A stretch of DNA of 60,091 bases, filler included, from Ionaspis alba (GCA_964255285.1; 10 parts of 10 records of this genome joined end to end with filler, not necessarily neighbours in it), one strand, 5' to 3'. Counted from the first letter of the whole stretch, positions 5,971-54,209 are shown. Notes: generated by a model from the sequence alone, not told the origin. Made by a program: numbers and translations.

Positions 5971-6070
5971 NNNNNNNNNNNNNNNNNNNNNNNNNNNNNN
6001 NNNNNNNNNNNNNNTTAATTAATTAANNNNNNNNNNNNNNNNNNNNNNNNNNNNNNNNNNNNNNNNNNNN
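5971..6070. other. Artificial contig-joining linker (N-TTAATTAATTAA-N, 100 nt); also at 12019, 18060, 24099, 30125, 36137, 42136, 48123 and 54110
   Basis: Identical 100-nt blocks containing a six-frame stop 12-mer, spaced about 6 kb apart; genes are cut at these points. Plain 100-N scaffold gaps occur at 26904-27003 and 32862-32961. Confidence 0.97.
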
Positions 6071-11233: not shown

Positions 11234-12635
11234 GCGAGGGGCATATCAGGTGCTTTCATTTCTCTCTCTACTTTAGCATGCCCTTCATGCATTGGGTTGT
11301 TGTGTGCGGACGGGTGCCGCCTGTTGCTGTTGTACTACTAAGCGAAGGTGCCTTGGGTGCGCCTTGGGGCTTTCGATAGCTTACGATGTAATATAGATCA
11401 GTTGAAAATGTGACTGGGGAATTTACTTGCTTGTGTATATCTTGCTGTGTTCGATGGCCGAGGGAGTCACGGTAGTTTGTGGGAGCCCTCCCGGACAGAC
11501 CAACCATAACAGGGTGAAGAGCTTCGGTGCTACATGATGATCTCTAACCGGGATGGCAGAGGTCTGACTCTAACAGCGGAGCGAAGCTGATCAGCGCTGG
11601 GTATCCGCGTCGTGAGTCCCCAATATATTAGGTGCGTATCCCCCGGGTACTTGCATCTGTACCACCTGACATTCTCCAGTATCCAAGCAGTGTGGTGCCT
11701 CGAGGTTGGTCGGGAACCTTCAGCCTGCAGGTCTTTCACAGTACTAATGGACGCTCATTATTGTATACCACCGAATACAAAATTTGCTGCTGGCCCCCTC
11801 ACTTCTTGTGAACCTGTACTTAGAGGCTTTCTCCACAACCTAGGTATCTTTCCGATTAGCCATCTTCCTTGATCACATAATCAGATACAGGCCGACCACC
11901 ACATATCCAAAACATCTAAGGATCAATATTTCTTCTGCTTAACGCGTTGCGAGTCGCCCAACGTGATTGGGAATCATTATTAGAAATAGTTGTCCAACGC
12001 CTGGATATTGGTGATGCTNNNNNNNNNNNNNNNNNNNNNNNNNNNNNNNNNNNNNNNNNNNNTTAATTAATTAANNNNNNNNNNNNNNNNNNNNNNNNNN
12101 NNNNNNNNNNNNNNNNNNGTGGTGAGGGTACCGATTGTGTCGACTGGAGGTGGAGGAAATGACATGGTGAGAGTGTCAATTGAGAGTTCTTTCTATAGGA
12201 GGACAAATTGGAGTACAGAGCAAATGAAGGAACTTATAACGTTTCATCAGCGAAGTAGACAAGAGAATAAACAGAAAGGAAAGTGTTCCAATATCCGCCG
12301 AGCCAGAAAATAAGTGAAGCTGACTGACGGCCTGCGAGATCGGCTGCACAGGGATCAGCTACTAGCGAGGGATGTCCCAGGGCTTATGCAGGTCCAATGC
12401 ACGGATCACTACATGCATAAGGCCAACTTTCGACAACACTCTTGCGACATCGAGGGCCCGTTGGCCCTTTGTTTGTGCCATGGTCAACTCCAACGCCTCG
12501 AGCTGATCGACGAGACATCAACAGAACACGCGAGTCCTTTTGATTACTTGATTCTTTCGGACGAACCCTTCCGTCCAACGACCTCGACGAAATGCGCCGG
12601 TAGCAAGCCTCTAGACTTCAAACTACCCACGAATA

Positions 12636-16412: not shown

Positions 16413-18159
16413 GTTTGTTTATGCATGCGGTGTGGGTTTCCATGGGTTTAGCGCACAGACGGACAGTAGGATTAGGGTTATTTCGGAAGACAGGGCTGCA
16501 GAACACACACTGCACTCATTGACAGACTACCGCTATTCAGCTCATTCGGCTTCAGATTGCTGGTTTGAAGGGTATGATCGTATCGTTATTAGAACGAAAG
16601 TATTAGACAAAGTCGACTTGGCTATCTCAATTTCTCAAAGCCTCCTCGTCATCTTCCTTCCTGTCATATCTCTCCTCAAGCTCTAATGAACGGATGGGAA
16701 TAGCAGTAACAGGTGATTGTCTCATGCCGAACACCTCGTCTATTGAATTGTGGTTGTGTTGCTAGGAGTAGACCCTCAAGCAGTCGACTCGGCTCATTAC
16801 CATCCATCGCCTTTTAGTGTTGAGTCGAAACAATACTGTGTAAGACAGGGGCAGCCTGTGCCAGGACTAGGTTTCTTCTGCCAAAGGCAATGTTGACGGC
16901 ATGACGGATGGCAATGATCGCAACAGGCATGGAGGGTATAAGAGTGAACTTTTCTTAGCCGAGTCTAAATTCTTGGTCTCACGTAGTCCGCATGGTTTCT
17001 CATCCCTATGCGTCTTCAGTATTACAAAATGTGACGCTTATTGGCCAAGTAGACTTACATATCACACACAAGCGTGTCTGCTTCACTCATAGCGCTTGTC
17101 AGCCCAAGCATTCTTCTTGGACACACTCGTCTCGCTCTCCGCCTTTACCTTCTCCATGCTGTTCTCCGCGATCAACCATCTCCAACGCCTAGATCGTGAT
17201 CGTGATTTTGTCCACGGAGAGCCTTTGAGTTCCACGAGAAAGCGCCTCGGGGAACCGAAGTAGAAGTCATGATGAAAACAAATAGAGTTATGAAATGCAA
17301 GCCAGCATTGTTCGAACCTGCTAGATACTCAGCAGATGCTGTAGAAGACGCCATCGATACAGCGTCCGAGGAGTGAGCTGAGGATGGGTGTGGGATAACG
17401 AATCTAGTACATATACATGATGAGAATGGCGCATGGAGCATGCTCGGTGACCATTGTCGATTAAAATAAGATAGATGGGAAAACTTGTCCCGCCAGCTCT
17501 GAGATATCGGGCGCCGAACATAAATTGCAAGAAGCTCGAGAACTTAACCAGCAGCAGCAAGTCCTCCACATGAAAGAGCAGATATACGGTCGGTCAATCA
17601 GTCCCGCAACTTAGGATCAGAGTTTTGCCTGATTCCACGGGGTTAAAGAGTCGTTGGCAAGCACTATTTGACTCAAGTCCTTAACTATATGCGATTAGAT
17701 TGACGGATACGAGATAGATGATGATAGGAAGGCATACTCTTCAATAAGATGGTCACTCAATTGGCATAGAAGCGTGGTCACTGCAGACACCGCGGTTTAT
17801 CAAGCAAGCAGGATCTGCTACAGGGGTGCATGTCATGCAAAACCAAGGTCTTCAATGCTAGAATAATGAACATGCCGGTCTCATACGCCAGCTAAGCTCT
17901 CCAAGCGCAGGCCAAGCAACTATCGAGCAGAGTACCAAGCGCCATGCGGGATGGAAAATCAGAGTATGTGTAGGAACAGCCGTTGACCGGGGAGATCTAT
18001 CATGACCGACTAAGTAGCACACACCATACCTATCTATTACCCAAACTTGTAGAGAGTCTNNNNNNNNNNNNNNNNNNNNNNNNNNNNNNNNNNNNNNNNN
18101 NNNTTAATTAATTAANNNNNNNNNNNNNNNNNNNNNNNNNNNNNNNNNNNNNNNNNNNN

Positions 18160-23959: not shown

Positions 23960-24521
23960 TCCGAGCTTCGTGTCCTTGGTTTTAGCGAATTGAGCGGAAA
24001 GCATTAGAGATTTGGGTGGGAAAAGTGGGCTGATTGGGAATTAGCATGAGCCACGGGGGCGGCGTCTTTGCTCTCTCTACTCAACTACATCTCGGCTCNN
24101 NNNNNNNNNNNNNNNNNNNNNNNNNNNNNNNNNNNNNNNNNNTTAATTAATTAANNNNNNNNNNNNNNNNNNNNNNNNNNNNNNNNNNNNNNNNNNNNTC
24201 CATCCAAAAAGCTTCTTAAGTCCGGCCGAATGACGTCGATTCTACCAATCTGCAGATTGATTATTATTGATGGCGGATTATTCAGGAATTAGTTAGATTT
24301 AGCTGCGGAAAATTTCCTTCTCTCCAATATTATATATATTGACGCGAGCATAGATAGAATCCGTTGCGTTCCCACATTTGTTTGTGTGTTTCGCTCGTTC
24401 GTGGATAACTGTTGCTCATACTACTTGCTTGAGTAGACGCAATTGAAATATTATTGTCGTAAAAGATTGGTTATTTGCATTAGAGATTTGTCTATATTCA
24501 CAACGTTTACAGAAAAAATTC

Positions 24522-26675: not shown

Positions 26676-27928
26676 TTCGTAGCAAAAGCAAACCATAATC
26701 ATATTCTTAAAAGTATTAAACCAAAGATCTGGCGATAAGACAAGAAGTTGACCCGTCATTGGGATACACATTGTATCTGATGTTGGAAATGACGGATGAG
26801 AAGAACGGTCACGGTGACACTTGAAGGTGTCAACCACGTGGAGAAGGGAAGATTGGCGGCCGCACATGGCCTAACAGCGTTACCCGCAACGCCTACGTGC
26901 AAANNNNNNNNNNNNNNNNNNNNNNNNNNNNNNNNNNNNNNNNNNNNNNNNNNNNNNNNNNNNNNNNNNNNNNNNNNNNNNNNNNNNNNNNNNNNNNNNN
27001 NNNGGCCGACAAGGTTCCAGGGACAGGGATCAGGGTCTGATGTCGCAAGAGGGGTCTGGCTGTCTGTCTCTCACAGGCTTGTCGGTTTTGTCTCAAACTC
27101 AACTCGACTTGATCCCACAGCCAGACCAGACTTCAATTATGTACACGATCTAGCACTGCTACTACCACTCCTGCCTTGCCTCTGCATGCCACTACTCGAC
27201 TCTACTCTGATCTCATGAACTATGCTATAATCAGCTTCATTGTCTACGTCGTCCTGCATCGTGGTACCACCTCTCCTGCCTCCTCCTCTTTCCCCTCTCC
27301 AACCAATCTATCCCATACGATACCGGCCAGGTCCACATGATCTCGTGTAGGCATTCTCATGTCGGATCGATAGACATGGTCTCTATCTACCAGTCCGCAA
27401 CCTCGCAGGCGATGTGATACAATGCTCAGCCAATCCATACGCCGCCTCCAAGCCCAACAATCCCAAGAACATCCTTGATAGAGCGTGTCTCGCAATCCAA
27501 TTGGCGCACCTTAATCTGCGAGGTCCGTTGTCGTTCCTGCTGCGCGACACCAGGCTGATCTTTTTTTTGGGCAAATCTTCAGGAAAACTTGCCCATACCC
27601 GTGCTGCTCCATCAGTTGAGCCTTGCCTCCCGCCTACCTTGGATAGCGCCGCATATTGACCCACTATCGCCTCATTGCGTCGTTCTGAGCACGGCATAGG
27701 ACCTAGACTTTTCGCACCGGCGCTCTCGTGCTCCATCGCTTCACCGAGGGACCAGACGAACCACTGCAGCAATTTGGTCCCCTTGAAGGGTGAGGAGTGA
27801 TTTGCTTGGTCCAGACTGCTCGGGTATTTGGCTCGTAAGGACGTGCTTGATCCAGCGACGGCATACCTTACGGATACGGGCTTGTATGCCAAGGAAGCAC
27901 TGGTCGCCTCTGAATTCCTACATATATC

Positions 27929-30124: not shown

Positions 30125-30224
30125 NNNNNNNNNNNNNNNNNNNNNNNNNNNNNNNNNNNNNNNNNNNNTTAATTAATTAANNNNNNNNNNNNNNNNNNNN
30201 NNNNNNNNNNNNNNNNNNNNNNNN

Positions 30225-32314: not shown

Positions 32315-33319
32315 CGTCAATATTGTGCTGTGCTTCCCAAGCGAGAAAATGATGTAAAACACAACCAGAGGAGAGGGAATGTGTACAATATGAACGGTTT
32401 ATGTCCCCGGCAAGTCAAGAGCTTAGAATTGTAACGGGTAGAAGATCAATGCCCTTGTACCACTGTTCAGTGCCCCAGTTCAGACGTCAAATAGAACAAT
32501 CAAGCATTTCCAAGCTTCGATATATGGAGCTTATTATCAAGCAAGCAAGAACGCTGCACGAGCAAGGGGCAATCAGGGACGTAGAAGATAAGAAAAGGCT
32601 CCAGGAGGCAGAAACAGAAATTGCCAGATAGCAGCTCTGCTAGCTGATAAGTCCAAACAACGGAGCAAAAAGTAGCATGTGGCAGGTGCGAAGTGGGGGT
32701 ACCCTGTGGATTCTATACAAGAGCCAGAAGCCACGGAGTCGGGGATTCTAGATGCCATGACGGTATTGAGATAGCCCGGTTGAAGAACAAGAGTCATGGG
32801 TATTCGTTTCTTTGTTTTCCTTGCACGCAATGCTCTGACGTGTGTCTTGCAATATGAAGAGNNNNNNNNNNNNNNNNNNNNNNNNNNNNNNNNNNNNNNN
32901 NNNNNNNNNNNNNNNNNNNNNNNNNNNNNNNNNNNNNNNNNNNNNNNNNNNNNNNNNNNNNTACTCCACAAAGTGGAGTCATGTCGTCGCACAATATATC
33001 AGTAGTCCAGTGGCCAGAACAATTGCCACTTCTCATATTATGCTTTGGTGGTTCAGAGATTCAGATCCACCCCACTCAATCAGTGAAACTTGTTCAATCG
33101 GATTCGTCAACGTTTGAGTATTGAAAGTGGCTCAAAGGTGGGATGATGCAACCTCGCTGCGTAAATCCCTGGAGCTTGATCCTCCATCTGCAAGCTGCAC
33201 CCGATTTCTCTGCCACCATTACCAGATAGGCTTTGCGATTAGCTTTGCTCGGTCGTGGAACCCCCCCAAGATCAATCACTCAGCCTCTGACTGGAATAGT
33301 CGTATGACTTCATCACCAT

Positions 33320-35498
33320 TTACGGTCCGGTCTTCTCCAAAATCGTCTTGATCATTTCATTGCCGACTCTCGTAGCCTCTGGAAACCGTGGAGCGAAATA
33401 CTCCTGAATGTGTTCGAATCGATCGCGATAGGAGGAGAAATCGCCAAATGAGACGCACTCGGACCACCCCTAAAATGGGAAGGAGGCAAAGGTAAGCAAG
33501 TCGACGCGAAACACTAGGGTTCTACTTGCAGATGGGAAAGCAACAAGCACAACCACGCCCGTTGGACCGGGGACATCCGTGGATCAACGGTCAACATGGC
33601 AGGTGAATACAAGCAGATAGCCTACTGAGACATGTGATGTGACCTCGATGTCAATTTCCCATGCATCACAAAGCCGTTACAAAGCCATGAGGACTGCAAT
33701 GAGCAAGGAATTGTGACTTATCACCCATGCTCGCATAACACAAAGAAAGGGAATAATAGCACTCACTCGAGCAGCAAATGTGAATTCGAGGTCATCGGAT
33801 CGAAAGGTGTTGTCCTCAATCGCCGTCTCGATGACTTCCTCCAGCAGTGATGGCTTCCGAAACAGATATTCCGTCACTCCTAGCCACAGGCGAAATAACT
33901 ACCAACGATCTTGTTAGCCCAAAGATGTCCTCGTCTCCCGGAAAAAGGAGAAACCACTGTTCCTTGGACTCACCGGAGTAGAGCAGATCATGTGGTCGTA
34001 TGGCACGATCCCAAGCTTCCACCAACAGTCCACCATAGCCAGGAGACTAAGATGGTTATTTCGTGCCTTCTCCTGCGGAACCTTGCCCAGCGAGAACCGA
34101 TCCAAGACCTCATCTCTCAGCAACAAATCCCCATCATCCTCACCCTCCCTGGAATGGAAGACCGCCGCTCCCGCCGTCTTGATCCGATGAGAGAGTTCCT
34201 CACGATGCCCACCAAGCATCAACTTGAACAGTTCTGTCACCGACTCGGCATATTGCCTGATCTGAGCTTTGGCAGAGGGATTGAGAATAGCGAGACCGGC
34301 ATAGACGTGCCATTTGTTGGAGTATATCCGGAGCGTCAAGTTGATCTTGACGTTCTCGATGCCTCCGACATAGCGGTTGATTTCCCAGGGGAATTGGTTG
34401 TTGGCTCGCCAGGCTGTTCCCATACTCAGGAAGGCTGCATGGGTTACGGCTTGGGTGTCAGCGGTGATGATGTCGTGCTTCTCGGCTGTGAGATGGACAT
34501 GTTTGGAGCCGAAGCAAGAAAGGATTTTCTCGACTAGCTGTACGCTTTGGTCGGAAGCTCGATACCGCACTATGGCCAAAGGCTGACCTTTTGGATCAAC
34601 ATTGGGTCCATGGAGGGAATGACAGGATATGATCTCGATGTCGGAGGGCAAATGTCTTTCGAATGCAGCGATCTCCGGTGCTTTGCATGAGGTCTGACCG
34701 CCCACTATGGCACCTTGCTTGGTGGCTGCAATGGTCAGACACTTTTCACACCATGCACAAGAAGTTGGTCATACAAGGCCCGTATTGAGCAACGATGTTT
34801 TCGATAGCCTCAGCTTCTACACTGTAAATGATATAATCGCTTGATCTTGATACCAGATGCCCGTTCGGGTAGATGTATACACTGTTCTAACTAATCTTAG
34901 CTACTCGTCTATATACTCGTGGTCCCTGGGCATTGATACCCTACCAGCAAACTGCTCCTTCAATGATTCATATTTGTCTGCCTTGTCACACGCATGGACC
35001 CTAGGGACAAATGTCTCGTCAGCCCCTCCTTCTTTCTCGAGTCGCTTAAATATTCACGAGTTATTGATGTCTGTGGATACAATTGTCAGTCCACAAAATT
35101 CCGAGACTTGGTGACAGCGAGAGGATAGATAGGTAATAGCAAGGTTCAGAAAAGAAAAGAATTAGGTAGCTGAGATTTTACATCATTGACGACCTGCCGG
35201 ACAGCAAAGGCAACAAAATGATGTCAGAGCTACCTGACAGGCCGTACTCGAGCCAAATGCACTCAAGTTCATCACGTCTCTAATAGAAAATGCTAGGAAG
35301 AGCACAGAATGAAAGCTTACCTTAAACCTGTCTAGTTGTATGCCCAATTATCTCTCCACTAACGCATGAAGAAGGAAAACTCTACCTCCAGCCAGCATCA
35401 CTCAGTCTTCTGGTATACATCTTCCCCATATCTCCCATACCAATGATCCCAATGGTGATGTTCTCCATAGCTGCACACTCTTTGTCCTCGGTAAGCAT
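33320..35498 (-). CDS. TYR1: Prephenate dehydrogenase (NADP+)
   Basis: IGIIGMGDMGKMY, VGGQTSCKAPE, CHSLHGP, HDIITADTQAVTH, YSNKWHVYAGLA, DDLEFTFAAR|GWSECV. Unusually long introns at 35385-35001 and 33766-33470. Confidence 0.96.
35143..35280 (-). ncRNA. snR13: Box C/D snoRNA, snR13 homologue (intronic)
   Basis: C box GTGATGA (35275-35269) followed by TGAGTGCATTTGGCTCGAG; 3' CTCAGCTACCT, then a U-rich tract and D box CTGA (35149-35146). Both blocks match recalled yeast snR13 and are antisense to LSU rRNA AGGUAGCCAAAUGC. Confidence 0.85.
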
Positions 35499-36236
35499 CT
35501 GTCCGGGTTTAGGATAGTCGCTCGTAGACCTAGTCACTTCAATGCATTGGGTGTCAATGTGCTAAAGCAAGTCCTGTCGCACTATTTATGCGTGGTGTTG
35601 TCAGTCTGGAGGTCCCACGGACGTCAAAGGTATCATTGTGCTGTCGAAGTCAATGATTGTGAGAATCCGCTCGTTGCTGTGGTTGCCGGAACAAAAATGA
35701 ATTCAAGCGGAAGGATTTAAGCTTCAGCGCGTTAGCAGCCGTTCTTAGCGAGGATTACATCGATCGCGCATCGGCAGTCCCAGCCTCTCGCCGTGATCCT
35801 CACCAAACCCCTCCAACACTGTTTCCAGCCACCACTTATTTTGCTTGCACGCATGGTGGTCCTTCACGTGTACTTACTTCGTCTCTGGCTATTGTCACTG
35901 GAAGTGATCTGACGAAGTTCACGGAAGTCCTTGCTTGAGCTTCAAACTGTGCCTCGATTGACACGCAAGCCCGAACTGGTATGCTTGAAATCAGCTTCTC
36001 ATGTCTCTCGGCGCTATATGCTGATTCACGACTCTCACTGTTCCAGTCTCCATAGAAAACATGTCTGATATCGCTGTTCCACGGACTCCGACTCCCGGCG
36101 CGAATCGCTTGGAGATGATGGATCCACCAGCTCTCANNNNNNNNNNNNNNNNNNNNNNNNNNNNNNNNNNNNNNNNNNNNTTAATTAATTAANNNNNNNN
36201 NNNNNNNNNNNNNNNNNNNNNNNNNNNNNNNNNNNN

Positions 36237-41392: not shown

Positions 41393-42235
41393 TTTGATGT
41401 CACTCGCAAACAACGATCGTGATGAAGTGCAATCGATGTATCAAGTGTAGATACTGAGCCTGGCGAAGTATCCAAAAATTCGATACATGGTGAAGGACGG
41501 TGAGGAGACAAGCTGCCCAAATGACAGAGCCTGAAGGTGATACAACAGGAGAAGAGGAAGGGACAGAACATTGGCGAGTACATATTGGGAAAGGACAACC
41601 AGGAGTGTAAAATCTCTGCACATAGCTTTCGAGATGGGGCGGTTTTCGATAGCTGCCGCACTGTATGAGATCATGTGCTTTGGGGCAGGAAGCAATTCGG
41701 TCGCTGTCACCCAGGGGCAGCGTAATACGGATCAACGTGGGAAATGCAATATTTCAATGCCTGTGGCTATCAAATCCTCTAATCTCGTCCACGATCCATA
41801 GTCATAAGGTAATTACCAGCGATTTTTGCAAAGGCAAGTACTTTCCTCACCAAATTCGTGTGACCATTATGGATCGATAAGCATCAAAATGATAGTCCAT
41901 GAAGGATGTCATTCTTGGACTCCCCGAATCACCACCCGCGTATTGTCAAGGAGGGAAAGAGACAAGGAGGTCTGGCAAAAGTTTAACCGCCAGTAGCTTA
42001 GACCAGATAGTACTTCTCACCCTTTAGGCACTTAGAAAATCCACATCTTGCACCTCAACGCTGGCTACCTAGTTTTCTCAGTATGCGAGCCAAGCTAAGC
42101 GCCAATCCAGCCCCGGCTTAACATAGGAAAAGTGGNNNNNNNNNNNNNNNNNNNNNNNNNNNNNNNNNNNNNNNNNNNNTTAATTAATTAANNNNNNNNN
42201 NNNNNNNNNNNNNNNNNNNNNNNNNNNNNNNNNNN

Positions 42236-46933: not shown

Positions 46934-48222
46934 CGAGGATTCGCTAGCGATAGGTAAGGACTGTAGGAAGCTAATTCCAGCGACTGTGCTCCAAAAGCAT
47001 CACAATCTTGTCACTTCTGGCTCATGTCGTAGGAAGCTATAGATCTCGCCCTCCAATATAAGTATGAGCGAGAGCGAGAGCGTGATCGTTGGACAGGCAA
47101 AATGTAAGGCACAGTTTCCAAAAATTATTCTTTGCTGCAGGTCGGACTATAGGCGAGATAAAGCTCCACGAACGGCACAAGCAAAGGCGCAAAAAGGACT
47201 CGCATCTGCAGACATGCAGGTCCTCCCCTCTTTTCAGTGGCCGATCATTCGTTGCGACGTTTGGGCGACGGCAGATCTTATCCTCTGGTGAACCTTTTAA
47301 TGCGGCGGCTATCTCGAGTAGGTGGGGTGGGTTGGAGGTGGTCAGCATCTAATTCTCCTACGCCCGTGGTTCGTTGCCAACCAAGCAGACGAGTACCCCC
47401 GTTGGATTAAGGGGCACCCGCCAGCAAAGCACATCATGGGGAAGCTAAGAAAGGTGTAAAGATAAAAGTACGGGATGAAAAAGGGTCGACGACCATTGAA
47501 TTCACGAATATCAAGCCTTTACGCATCCAGTCACGTCGAAGCGTAAATGTTCGTCTCGCTCTCCTGCCGTCTACAAGGTTGTTGCTGGCAGCGCGAAGTC
47601 GATTAGACTGACCAGGCCACTGCAAGTGTGAACCTTGAAGCCGGTCAAAATCTTGCCACTATATTTTCACCCGTCCACGGAGCCAAGCTCCGAGTGCACT
47701 AACTCCAACTATTTATTGCGCTCAGGGGGGAAATCAGCCCAACCGAGTTGGCCTCTTCCAGGAGACCTCCAATAAAACGACGATCTGGTCCACAGGACAA
47801 CACAACGGCACAACGGCTAATCACCGCACTAAACCCCCATTTTCATGCATGCTGTGGTGATATGAGGTGTTTTATCACATGTGACAAGAGCAATTGTCTG
47901 GCCACCAAAGCGTGCGTGTGCGTGGCCGTGCTGAATCACGAAACAGAAACAAAAGAAATCGTATTTCCGCCGCGTCAATGTGTGCAAGGGTCTCGCGTTC
48001 AGATTCTAGGATTTTCTGATCATGATCTGCAGGCGGGTTCGAGGATATAAATCATCCTAGTGAGTAGCAGATTCCGAAATAAACTTTCAACTAGATCTCT
48101 GCAAGCAGTAGGTAGATCTTTGNNNNNNNNNNNNNNNNNNNNNNNNNNNNNNNNNNNNNNNNNNNNTTAATTAATTAANNNNNNNNNNNNNNNNNNNNNN
48201 NNNNNNNNNNNNNNNNNNNNNN

Positions 48223-53580: not shown

Positions 53581-54209
53581 TTCGGCCAAGGAGCTATGAA
53601 TATCTTCAGCAGAGACTGGAACACTTGAGGAAAGACTTCTTTAATGAGAGCACGAGAGACCAACACCCAATGCTTGGAGACATTCATGAACCGGATGACT
53701 TTGCGCCATCCCACTTTCAAGAAGGAAGGATTCTCTGCTTATCTCGTTGCATGCACTGTGCCTCAAATACTTCCAAATTTTAAGCTGCAGCCTGATCTTG
53801 TTGGCTGTCACATTACACGCAAGACAGGGAACGTCGATCAAGTTCAGCGATTGCGATAAACAAATGCGAGTCATCATCAACAACATCTCTTGACTACTTG
53901 GATCATTAGCAGTACAGGAGTGGACGACACACACAGTTGATGCAAAGAGGAGGCATTTCAGCTCCGGTAGACTCTTGTGCAAAGCTCAGTTGCAAGTAAT
54001 CATCCTGCCATCACAAGGCACAGCGTCTTTCCCAGGATCGTGTGCCACTCGAAGGCATGGGTTTTCAGCCTGCAGGTGTTGGATCTCGATTAATGTGGAT
54101 ATACGAAGCNNNNNNNNNNNNNNNNNNNNNNNNNNNNNNNNNNNNNNNNNNNNTTAATTAATTAANNNNNNNNNNNNNNNNNNNNNNNNNNNNNNNNNNN
54201 NNNNNNNNN

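Follow-up and report, generated by a model that had tools for sequence, protein, structure and literature searches.

A canonical intron predicted within the first intron of fungal TYR1 encloses the snR13 small nucleolar RNA, with inner splice signals conserved in relatives

Introns that lie whole inside other introns are an established feature of fungal genomes. In the Pezizomycotina, a canonical intron within a canonical intron has already been defined as a stwintron 'sensu lato' (Fekete et al. 2021, PMC8469720), and nested splicing has been seen directly in the yeast Cryptococcus neoformans, where spliceosome profiling revealed 13 cases, one of them in an intron of 391 nucleotides (nt) (bioRxiv 10.1101/224170). 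Nested or recursive splicing is also known from the non-coding host transcripts of small nucleolar RNAs (snoRNAs), namely Candida cluster II (PMC5033589) and the 'nested introns' of Euascomycete snR51 (PMC3596301). A further element of context comes from human cells, in which box C/D snoRNAs are preferentially found about 50 nt upstream of the branch point of their host intron, with IBP160/Aquarius proposed as the factor that couples splicing to assembly (PMC5519232). Here we describe the first intron of TYR1, the gene for prephenate dehydrogenase, in a 60,091-nt stretch of DNA from Ionaspis alba (GCA_964255285.1), which we call the window. This intron carries a snR13-type box C/D snoRNA and, around it, a second and complete set of splice signals. 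We favour, with moderate confidence, the reading of TYR1 intron 1 as a canonical intron nested in a canonical intron around snR13, whose inner sites would be used by the spliceosome.

The TYR1 gene lies on the minus strand of the window, with its ATG at 35468-35466, and its best named homologues over the large exon are those of the Lecanoromycetes Ptychographa xylographoides and Xylographa species (87% identity). In tblastn comparisons with full-length orthologues, exon 1 (MENITIGIIGMGDMGKMYTRRLSDAGWR) passes into exon 2 (VHACDK...) with zero residues lost, and the predicted junction AGWR/VHACD (the slash marks the splice) corresponds to an unbroken AGWRVNACD. Since the two exons join completely, the 385 nt between them (35385-35001) form a single intervening sequence in which no coding micro-exon is hidden. 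The first-pass annotation of this DNA had named the first intron of TYR1 as the host, and homology together with the tblastn placement of the exons bears this out. The intron is unusually long, as the next two introns of the same gene measure only about 53 and 49 nt.

The same annotation had proposed the splice motifs of both units, their coordinates, the lengths of 385, 250 and 135 nt and a D box about 60 nt upstream of the inner branch point; on the minus strand all of these are exact (Table 1). Removal of the inner unit leaves a residual intron of 135 nt, made of flanks of 65 and 70 nt, and the inner intron sits 59 nt past the outer donor hexamer and 47 nt ahead of the outer branch element. 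Micro-exon and separate-intron models were considered and rejected: the 5' flank has no terminal acceptor and the 3' flank no initial donor, the orthologues carry no extra residues, an AG stands before the inner donor in just 2 of 15 introns, and read-through of the outer donor meets a stop immediately after exon 1 (AGG TAG).

The inner unit recurs in related sequences. Relatives were searched for by scanning metagenome contigs with the C box and guide of the snoRNA as an exact 22-base motif, and the scan yielded 35 loci. In 24 of these, tblastn places snR13 inside the same TYR1 intron: relative to the C box, exon 1 is found about 90 nt upstream and exon 2 about 235 nt downstream; the remaining 11 are low-GC, yeast-like loci in which snR13 is apparently an independent gene. 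Adding the window to the 21 loci with a complete intron yields 15 introns of distinct sequence. In every one of them an inner donor of the form GTRNGY lies 33-46 nt ahead of the C box (GTAAGT in eight, GTAAGC in three, GTATGT in three and GTGAGT in one), always with G at +5 and, in 13 cases, with G at -1. All 15 also have an inner NCTRAY branch site whose A lies 51-60 nt after the D box, followed by an acceptor that ends 12-17 nt past the branch A (CAG in nine, TAG in five and AAG in one). The inner unit measures 227-250 nt, its 5' and 3' flanks 41-65 and 37-70 nt, the residual outer intron 78-135 nt and the full intron 309-385 nt. Consensus elements are found in both units in 14 of the 15 introns, the exception being locus L035, which has no CTRAY outer branch site; in the 14 introns that do have one, the outer branch A lies 89-127 nt past the D box. 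Three truncated loci (L009, L034 and L017) show these signals too, wherever their sequence is present. Conservation of the inner sites in relatives had been set beforehand as the test on which the intron-in-intron proposal could fail, and the sites are kept in 15 of 15 introns at fixed distances from the snoRNA.

The sequence around these signals has mostly not been kept. In a MAFFT alignment the flanks are for the most part unalignable and good conservation is confined to columns of exons, snoRNA and splice elements, while the inner branch region can be aligned just among the Pleosporales-like sequences. In one 3811-nt contig, the spacing from TYR1 exon to snoRNA is preserved (828 against 833 nt) and the intron flanks do not align at 80%. 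Besides the two donors, the 15 introns contain only six further GTRNGY motifs outside the snoRNA. We also counted how often shuffled flanks (5000 shuffles per sequence) contain both inner signals, defined as GTRNGY 30-50 nt before the C box plus CTRAY with an acceptor 45-65 nt after the D box: this happens in 0.04-0.66% of shuffles per sequence, the window giving the value of 0.66%.

These results bear on the alternative that an ordinary long intron hosting a snoRNA happens to match the inner motifs by chance. Short splice motifs are indeed common, the initial reading spanned 60 kb, and the window alone gives both signals in about 0.7% of shuffles; but both signals stand at the same distances in 15 of 15 introns while the sequence around them has diverged past alignment, the frequencies of 0.04-0.66% apply to each sequence, and a very close kinship of all loci is ruled out by the tree described below and by the diverged flanks, so that we regard coincidence as scarcely credible. 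Judged from these comparisons, purifying selection acts on the inner donor, branch site and acceptor, and in evolutionary terms the inner intron is real; its recurrence in distant fungal relatives indicates that the intron-in-intron design is probably functional.

The breadth of this conservation was assessed with a maximum-likelihood tree of the large exon, which leaves out L031, L035 and L022 as too short or too split. The window grouped with Ptychographa and Xylographa, of the Lecanoromycetes; two locus rows grouped with Periconia, and ten formed a well-supported clade beside Clohesyomyces (Pleosporales, Dothideomycetes). Because the Pleosporales-like loci and the Xylographaceae-like window share the layout, it predates the split of at least two classes. 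The 15 introns should be counted as roughly 6-8 independent lineages, because many of the loci are close kin. A looser-pattern scan of a bacterial and archaeal genome collection gave two matches, which look bacterial, have neither snoRNA features nor TYR1, and were discarded as chance.

The identity of the cargo rests on several features taken together. At the gathering score, Rfam returns no match in the region. In E-value mode snR13 (RF01223) is the sole Rfam match in the whole window, at 29.1 bits (gathering score 47) and with an E-value of 0.0054 for a search of 601 bases and 0.54 for the whole window; the check with the snR13 model that had been recommended for this locus gives a score under the family threshold. 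The Rfam alignment is limited to the 5' part of the snoRNA (C box, guide and D' box) and skips 71 model positions, and over 20 nt the guide equals the family consensus. The boxes expected of snR13 are all present, that is, a C box, a guide followed by CUCGA and a terminal D box; an unusual D' box, UCGA or CUCGA, has been described for yeast snR13 (PMC5389607). Moreover, the published snR13 homologue of Neurospora crassa, CD1, which is reported as a 125-nt RNA with the label 'Intron' and the assignment 26S-Am2242 (PMC2780460), has a start nearly identical to that of the window snoRNA when compared with supplement 1 of that paper. In the 3' half, TGATGT, GCTACCT and the terminal CTGA are present in 35 of 35 metagenome loci, the yeast-like ones included, and by this comparison the 3' half, too, is homologous to the snR13 of relatives. 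The snoRNA had been called snR13 from the outset, and it holds as an orthologue by its C box, guide, CUCGA and 3' elements. From the identity of the guide with those of yeast snR13 and N. crassa CD1, its predicted target is the equivalent of A2280/A2281 in the large-subunit ribosomal RNA. A term search of the main text and supplements of PMC2780460, as far as these were accessible, found no host gene for CD1.

Table 1. Features of TYR1 intron 1 and its surroundings, in coordinates of the window
Feature	Position	Strand	Details and basis
TYR1 coding exon 1	35386..35468	-	ATG to TGG AG; tblastn with P0010, P0025, P0070 residues 1-28
Outer intron (intron 1)	35001..35385	-	385 nt, phase 2; exon join
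Outer donor GTAGAG	35380..35385	-	no G at +5; sequence
Remainder of outer 5' flank	35321..35379	-	flank of 65 nt counting donor; unconserved among relatives (alignment)
Inner intron around snoRNA	35071..35320	-	250 nt; sequence and relatives
Inner donor GTAAGC	35315..35320	-	46 nt 5' of C box; sequence and relatives
snR13-type box C/D snoRNA	35141..35280	-	ends approximate; Rfam RF01223, relatives, yeast D' box
C box TGATGA	35269..35274	-	sequence
snoRNA guide	35253..35268	-	sequence and Rfam
D' box CUCGA	35248..35252	-	sequence
C' box TGATGT	35180..35185	-	sequence
Conserved GCTACCT element	35164..35170	-	sequence and relatives
D box CTGA	35146..35149	-	sequence
Inner branch site ACTGAC	35085..35090	-	A at 35086, 60 nt 3' of D box; sequence and relatives
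Inner acceptor CAG	35071..35073	-	end 15 nt past branch A; sequence and relatives
Outer 3' flank	35004..35070	-	70 nt counting acceptor; contains outer branch site
Outer branch site GCTGAC	35018..35023	-	A at 35019; sequence
Outer acceptor TAG	35001..35003	-	sequence and exon join
TYR1 exon 2	34940..35000	-	61 nt; begins G GTC CAT GCG TGT GAC; sequence and tblastn

How this arrangement works can be proposed from what is seen of its anatomy, conservation and spacing, from which we infer the use of the inner sites, the order of the reactions and a link to the assembly of the small nucleolar ribonucleoprotein (snoRNP). A two-step excision is plausible. The spliceosome would excise the inner unit as a lariat of 227-250 nt (250 nt in the window), with about 35-45 nt between its 5' end and the snoRNA and 51-60 nt from the snoRNA to the branch A downstream; the lariat would then be debranched and trimmed by exonucleases to release snR13. 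A second and ordinary splicing event would remove the residual intron of 78-135 nt (135 nt in the window) and restore the AGWR/VHACD frame. The likely reason for the persistence of the inner signals would be spacing: the inner branch point, at 51-60 nt, may provide the distance that favours splicing-coupled assembly of the C/D snoRNP, whereas the outer one is 89-127 nt off. Shortening an intron of 309-385 nt to one of 78-135 nt might also suit fungi whose introns are of about 50 nt.

Only two routes lead to the conserved reading frame, removal of the whole intron in one step through the outer sites, or excision of the inner unit followed by the outer one. In the first case the inner signals would be bound by U1/U2 or Aquarius-like factors and would be rarely or never catalytic, binding at the inner sites serving to help snoRNP assembly or to stabilise the precursor. 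The outer intron is complete by itself, and a distance of 51-60 nt from D box to branch point calls for recognition of the branch site rather than for full splicing; in C. neoformans, a nested event was unseen in polyA RNA-seq and removal of the full intron alone was observed (bioRxiv 10.1101/224170). Against this reading, all 15 introns keep an acceptor 12-17 nt past the inner branch A, and acceptors matter only for the second catalytic step, so that its conservation along with that of the donor and the branch site argues for catalysis completed on the inner unit; the inner donor, too, is of full consensus, all 15 introns having G at +5 and 13 of them G at -1. For these reasons we hold one-step splicing with non-catalytic inner sites to be unlikely.

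The four splice sites might also be paired crosswise, as a switch of alternative splicing, giving rise to premature stops and thus to snR13 without TYR1 protein. Each cross-pairing would still free a lariat that bears the snoRNA, retention of the 5' flank puts the AGG TAG stop just after exon 1, and transcripts of snoRNA hosts in N. crassa are reported to be alternatively spliced (PMC2780460); yet no sequence feature favours cross-pairing, and the flanks vary freely in length (41-65 and 37-70 nt) with no conserved reading frame or motif, which makes such a switch distinctly improbable. Recursive splicing at a zero-length exon, in which AAG/GTAAGC (35321/35320) would be used as an acceptor first and then as a regenerated donor, is suggested by the AAG that directly precedes GTAAGC in the window. 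However, the inner donor directly follows an AG in just two of the 15 introns, those of the window and L027, whereas the rest have TTG, ATG, AAT or TCT, and no branch consensus was noted on reading the 65-nt 5' flank; the relatives thus disfavour a recursive ratchet, and we give recursive splicing very little credence.

The whole intron folds no better than shuffled sequences (z -1.19, with 14 of 100 shuffles equally stable), and duplexes between the outer flanks or between the inner flanks are no stronger than in shuffles in 13 of 13 sequences tested, these being the 15 distinct introns minus L008 and L028, omitted as near-copies. A stem bridging the flanks was therefore rejected, duplex energies matching those of shuffles in all 13.

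As for the order of the two steps, the outer donor has no G at +5 in the window (GTAGAG), in L035 and in L031 (GTAAAC and GTAAAT), and one may speculate that a donor of this kind favours use of the inner donor first. The donor of TYR1 intron 2 in the window, GTATCA at 34934-34939, has no G at +5 either, so non-consensus donors like the outer GTAGAG are not unique within the gene.

Several points weigh against the nested reading with functional inner sites. A single reaction at the outer sites could take out all 385 nt and yield an identical mRNA, hence nothing in the sequence demands the two-step route. The distance windows of the shuffle criterion were set with the data already in view. The relatives were found through the 22-base motif of the snoRNA itself, and the lineages sampled are those keeping that motif exactly; since N. 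crassa CD1 differs in it, the Sordariomycetes fall outside the sample. Close kinship reduces the weight of the count, ten of the tree rows belonging to one Pleosporales-like clade. The signals have exceptions, L035 with an outer branch lacking CTRAY and L031 with an inner acceptor AAG. Finally, the coupling of snoRNP assembly to branch-point distance was described in mammalian cells, not in filamentous fungi (PMC5519232).

In the yeast-like loci L002 and L010, snR13 lies in a simple intron whose donor, GTATGT, stands 27 nt ahead of the C box and whose TACTAAC comes about 38 nt past the D box; this layout resembles the TYR1 inner intron and is a possible pointer to where the nested unit came from. 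By analogy with the snoRNA introns that PMC3596301 describes as 'excised and inserted', a snoRNA-bearing intron may possibly have been inserted into an existing intron.

Some further observations concern the gene and the window. An in-frame ATG is present at 35498-35496, 30 nt upstream of the main one (MLTEDKECAA-MENIT...), and the orthologues start at the second ATG. Among the deposited models of relatives, P0003 (Xylographa carneopallida, 415 aa), the one whose N-terminus was inspected, begins with MYTRRL within exon 1 and misses the first residues of exon 2, and P0002 and P0005 have just 370 and 364 aa; these odd models are probably mis-predictions around the long composite intron. In one contig set, which looks like the source DNA, another allele or strain makes up about 45% of the depth and differs from the window in the outer 5' flank at 35331, 35333, 35360 and 35368, where the differences listed include three T>C changes and one 3-nt deletion; the same variants occur in a contig from a second contig set, which contains relatives. 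Neither set yielded a usable splice junction. Every ~6 kb the window shows 44 N, TTAATTAATTAA and 44 N again (5971-6070, 12019-12118, 18060-18159, 24099-24198, 30125-30224, 36137-36236, 42136-42235, 48123-48222 and 54110-54209), and it looks like about ten pieces of ~5.9 kb with artificial linkers between them, so that the TYR1 promoter is not necessarily contiguous with sequence past 36136. Plain runs of 100 N at 26904-27003 and 32862-32961 resemble scaffold gaps.

Fungal nested introns have been catalogued mostly without a known reason, and in TYR1 the nesting is tied to a cargo, a guide RNA of an essential pathway, and to a conserved spacing. The presence of snR13 in TYR1 intron 1 represents a stable pairing of host and cargo in at least two classes of Pezizomycotina. 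The arrangement also leads to a testable hypothesis, namely that the inner sites are maintained by selection on snoRNP assembly or on the splicing efficiency of an unusually long intron. More tentatively, we suggest that the inner intron could be a dedicated 'snoRNA-release intron' older than the split between Lecanoromycetes and Dothideomycetes, retained because C/D snoRNP assembly in filamentous ascomycetes, as in mammals, would need a branch point 50-60 nt past the D box. Were this so, TYR1 pre-mRNA would be spliced inside-out obligatorily or predominantly, the locus would be the first case of a nested intron that has an evident selective reason, and position-dependent, splicing-coupled snoRNP assembly would appear to be ancient. 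For annotation, the short or odd TYR1 models of relatives fit gene predictors failing at a long composite intron.

In the literature searched, which did not extend to subscription journals and figure-only supplements, we found no description of snR13 in TYR1 and none of a protein-coding nested intron with a snoRNA in its inner unit. Where stwintrons and snoRNAs occur together in the papers found, the snoRNAs are named just in passing, and a fungal snoRNAome study mentions neither host genes nor snR13 nor nesting.

The comparison with known systems can start from the cargo. Yeast (Saccharomyces cerevisiae) snR13 and N. crassa CD1 match the window snoRNA in length (about 125-130 nt) and share with it the C box, the guide UGAGUGCAUUUGG, the D' box CUCGA and a conserved GCUACCU ahead of the D box. 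CD1 is likewise intronic; yeast snR13 is an independent gene, unlike the window's intronic copy, and in this respect the low-GC metagenome loci look like yeast.

Among nested introns, a close relative is the stwintron sensu lato. Both are nested complete U2-type introns of filamentous ascomycetes that leave the outer elements intact, and an 'inside-out' two-step excision has been proposed for that class as well (PMC8469720). Classical stwintrons of the D, L and A classes, as described there, need excision of the inner intron to rebuild an outer element, and the TYR1 intron does not: in 15 of 15 introns, window included, the inner intron interrupts no outer donor, branch element or acceptor, for which reason it is not a classical stwintron. 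The first-pass annotation was right on this difference, although the existence of the sensu lato class puts the locus less far outside the known than had been supposed. What distinguishes the TYR1 case from stwintrons is the snoRNA in the inner intron, kept across two classes; the case is known here from DNA alone. In C. neoformans, a basidiomycete yeast, nested splicing was observed on RNA, as opposed to the DNA-based reading given here, and is thought to reduce intron size; in the portion of that report available, neither a snoRNA cargo nor conservation is mentioned (bioRxiv 10.1101/224170).

The non-coding hosts of Candida and the Euascomycetes resemble TYR1 in that complex, ordered splicing frees fungal intronic C/D snoRNAs. 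Their introns overlap or abut, with exons of size 1, 0 or negative, and in the case of snR51 an intron is inserted within the snoRNA itself (PMC3596301), whereas the TYR1 host is protein-coding, one intron lies wholly within another and the snoRNA is intact in the inner one. The mammalian position rule, finally, was established in mammalian cells and the TYR1 hosts are filamentous fungi; the snoRNA nevertheless conforms to it in 15 of 15 introns, at 51-60 nt and with respect to the inner branch A alone, and flank pairing gives no external stem above chance beside it. Nested introns and nested splicing were thus already known in fungi, and what appears to be new in TYR1 is a deeply conserved form that carries a snoRNA.

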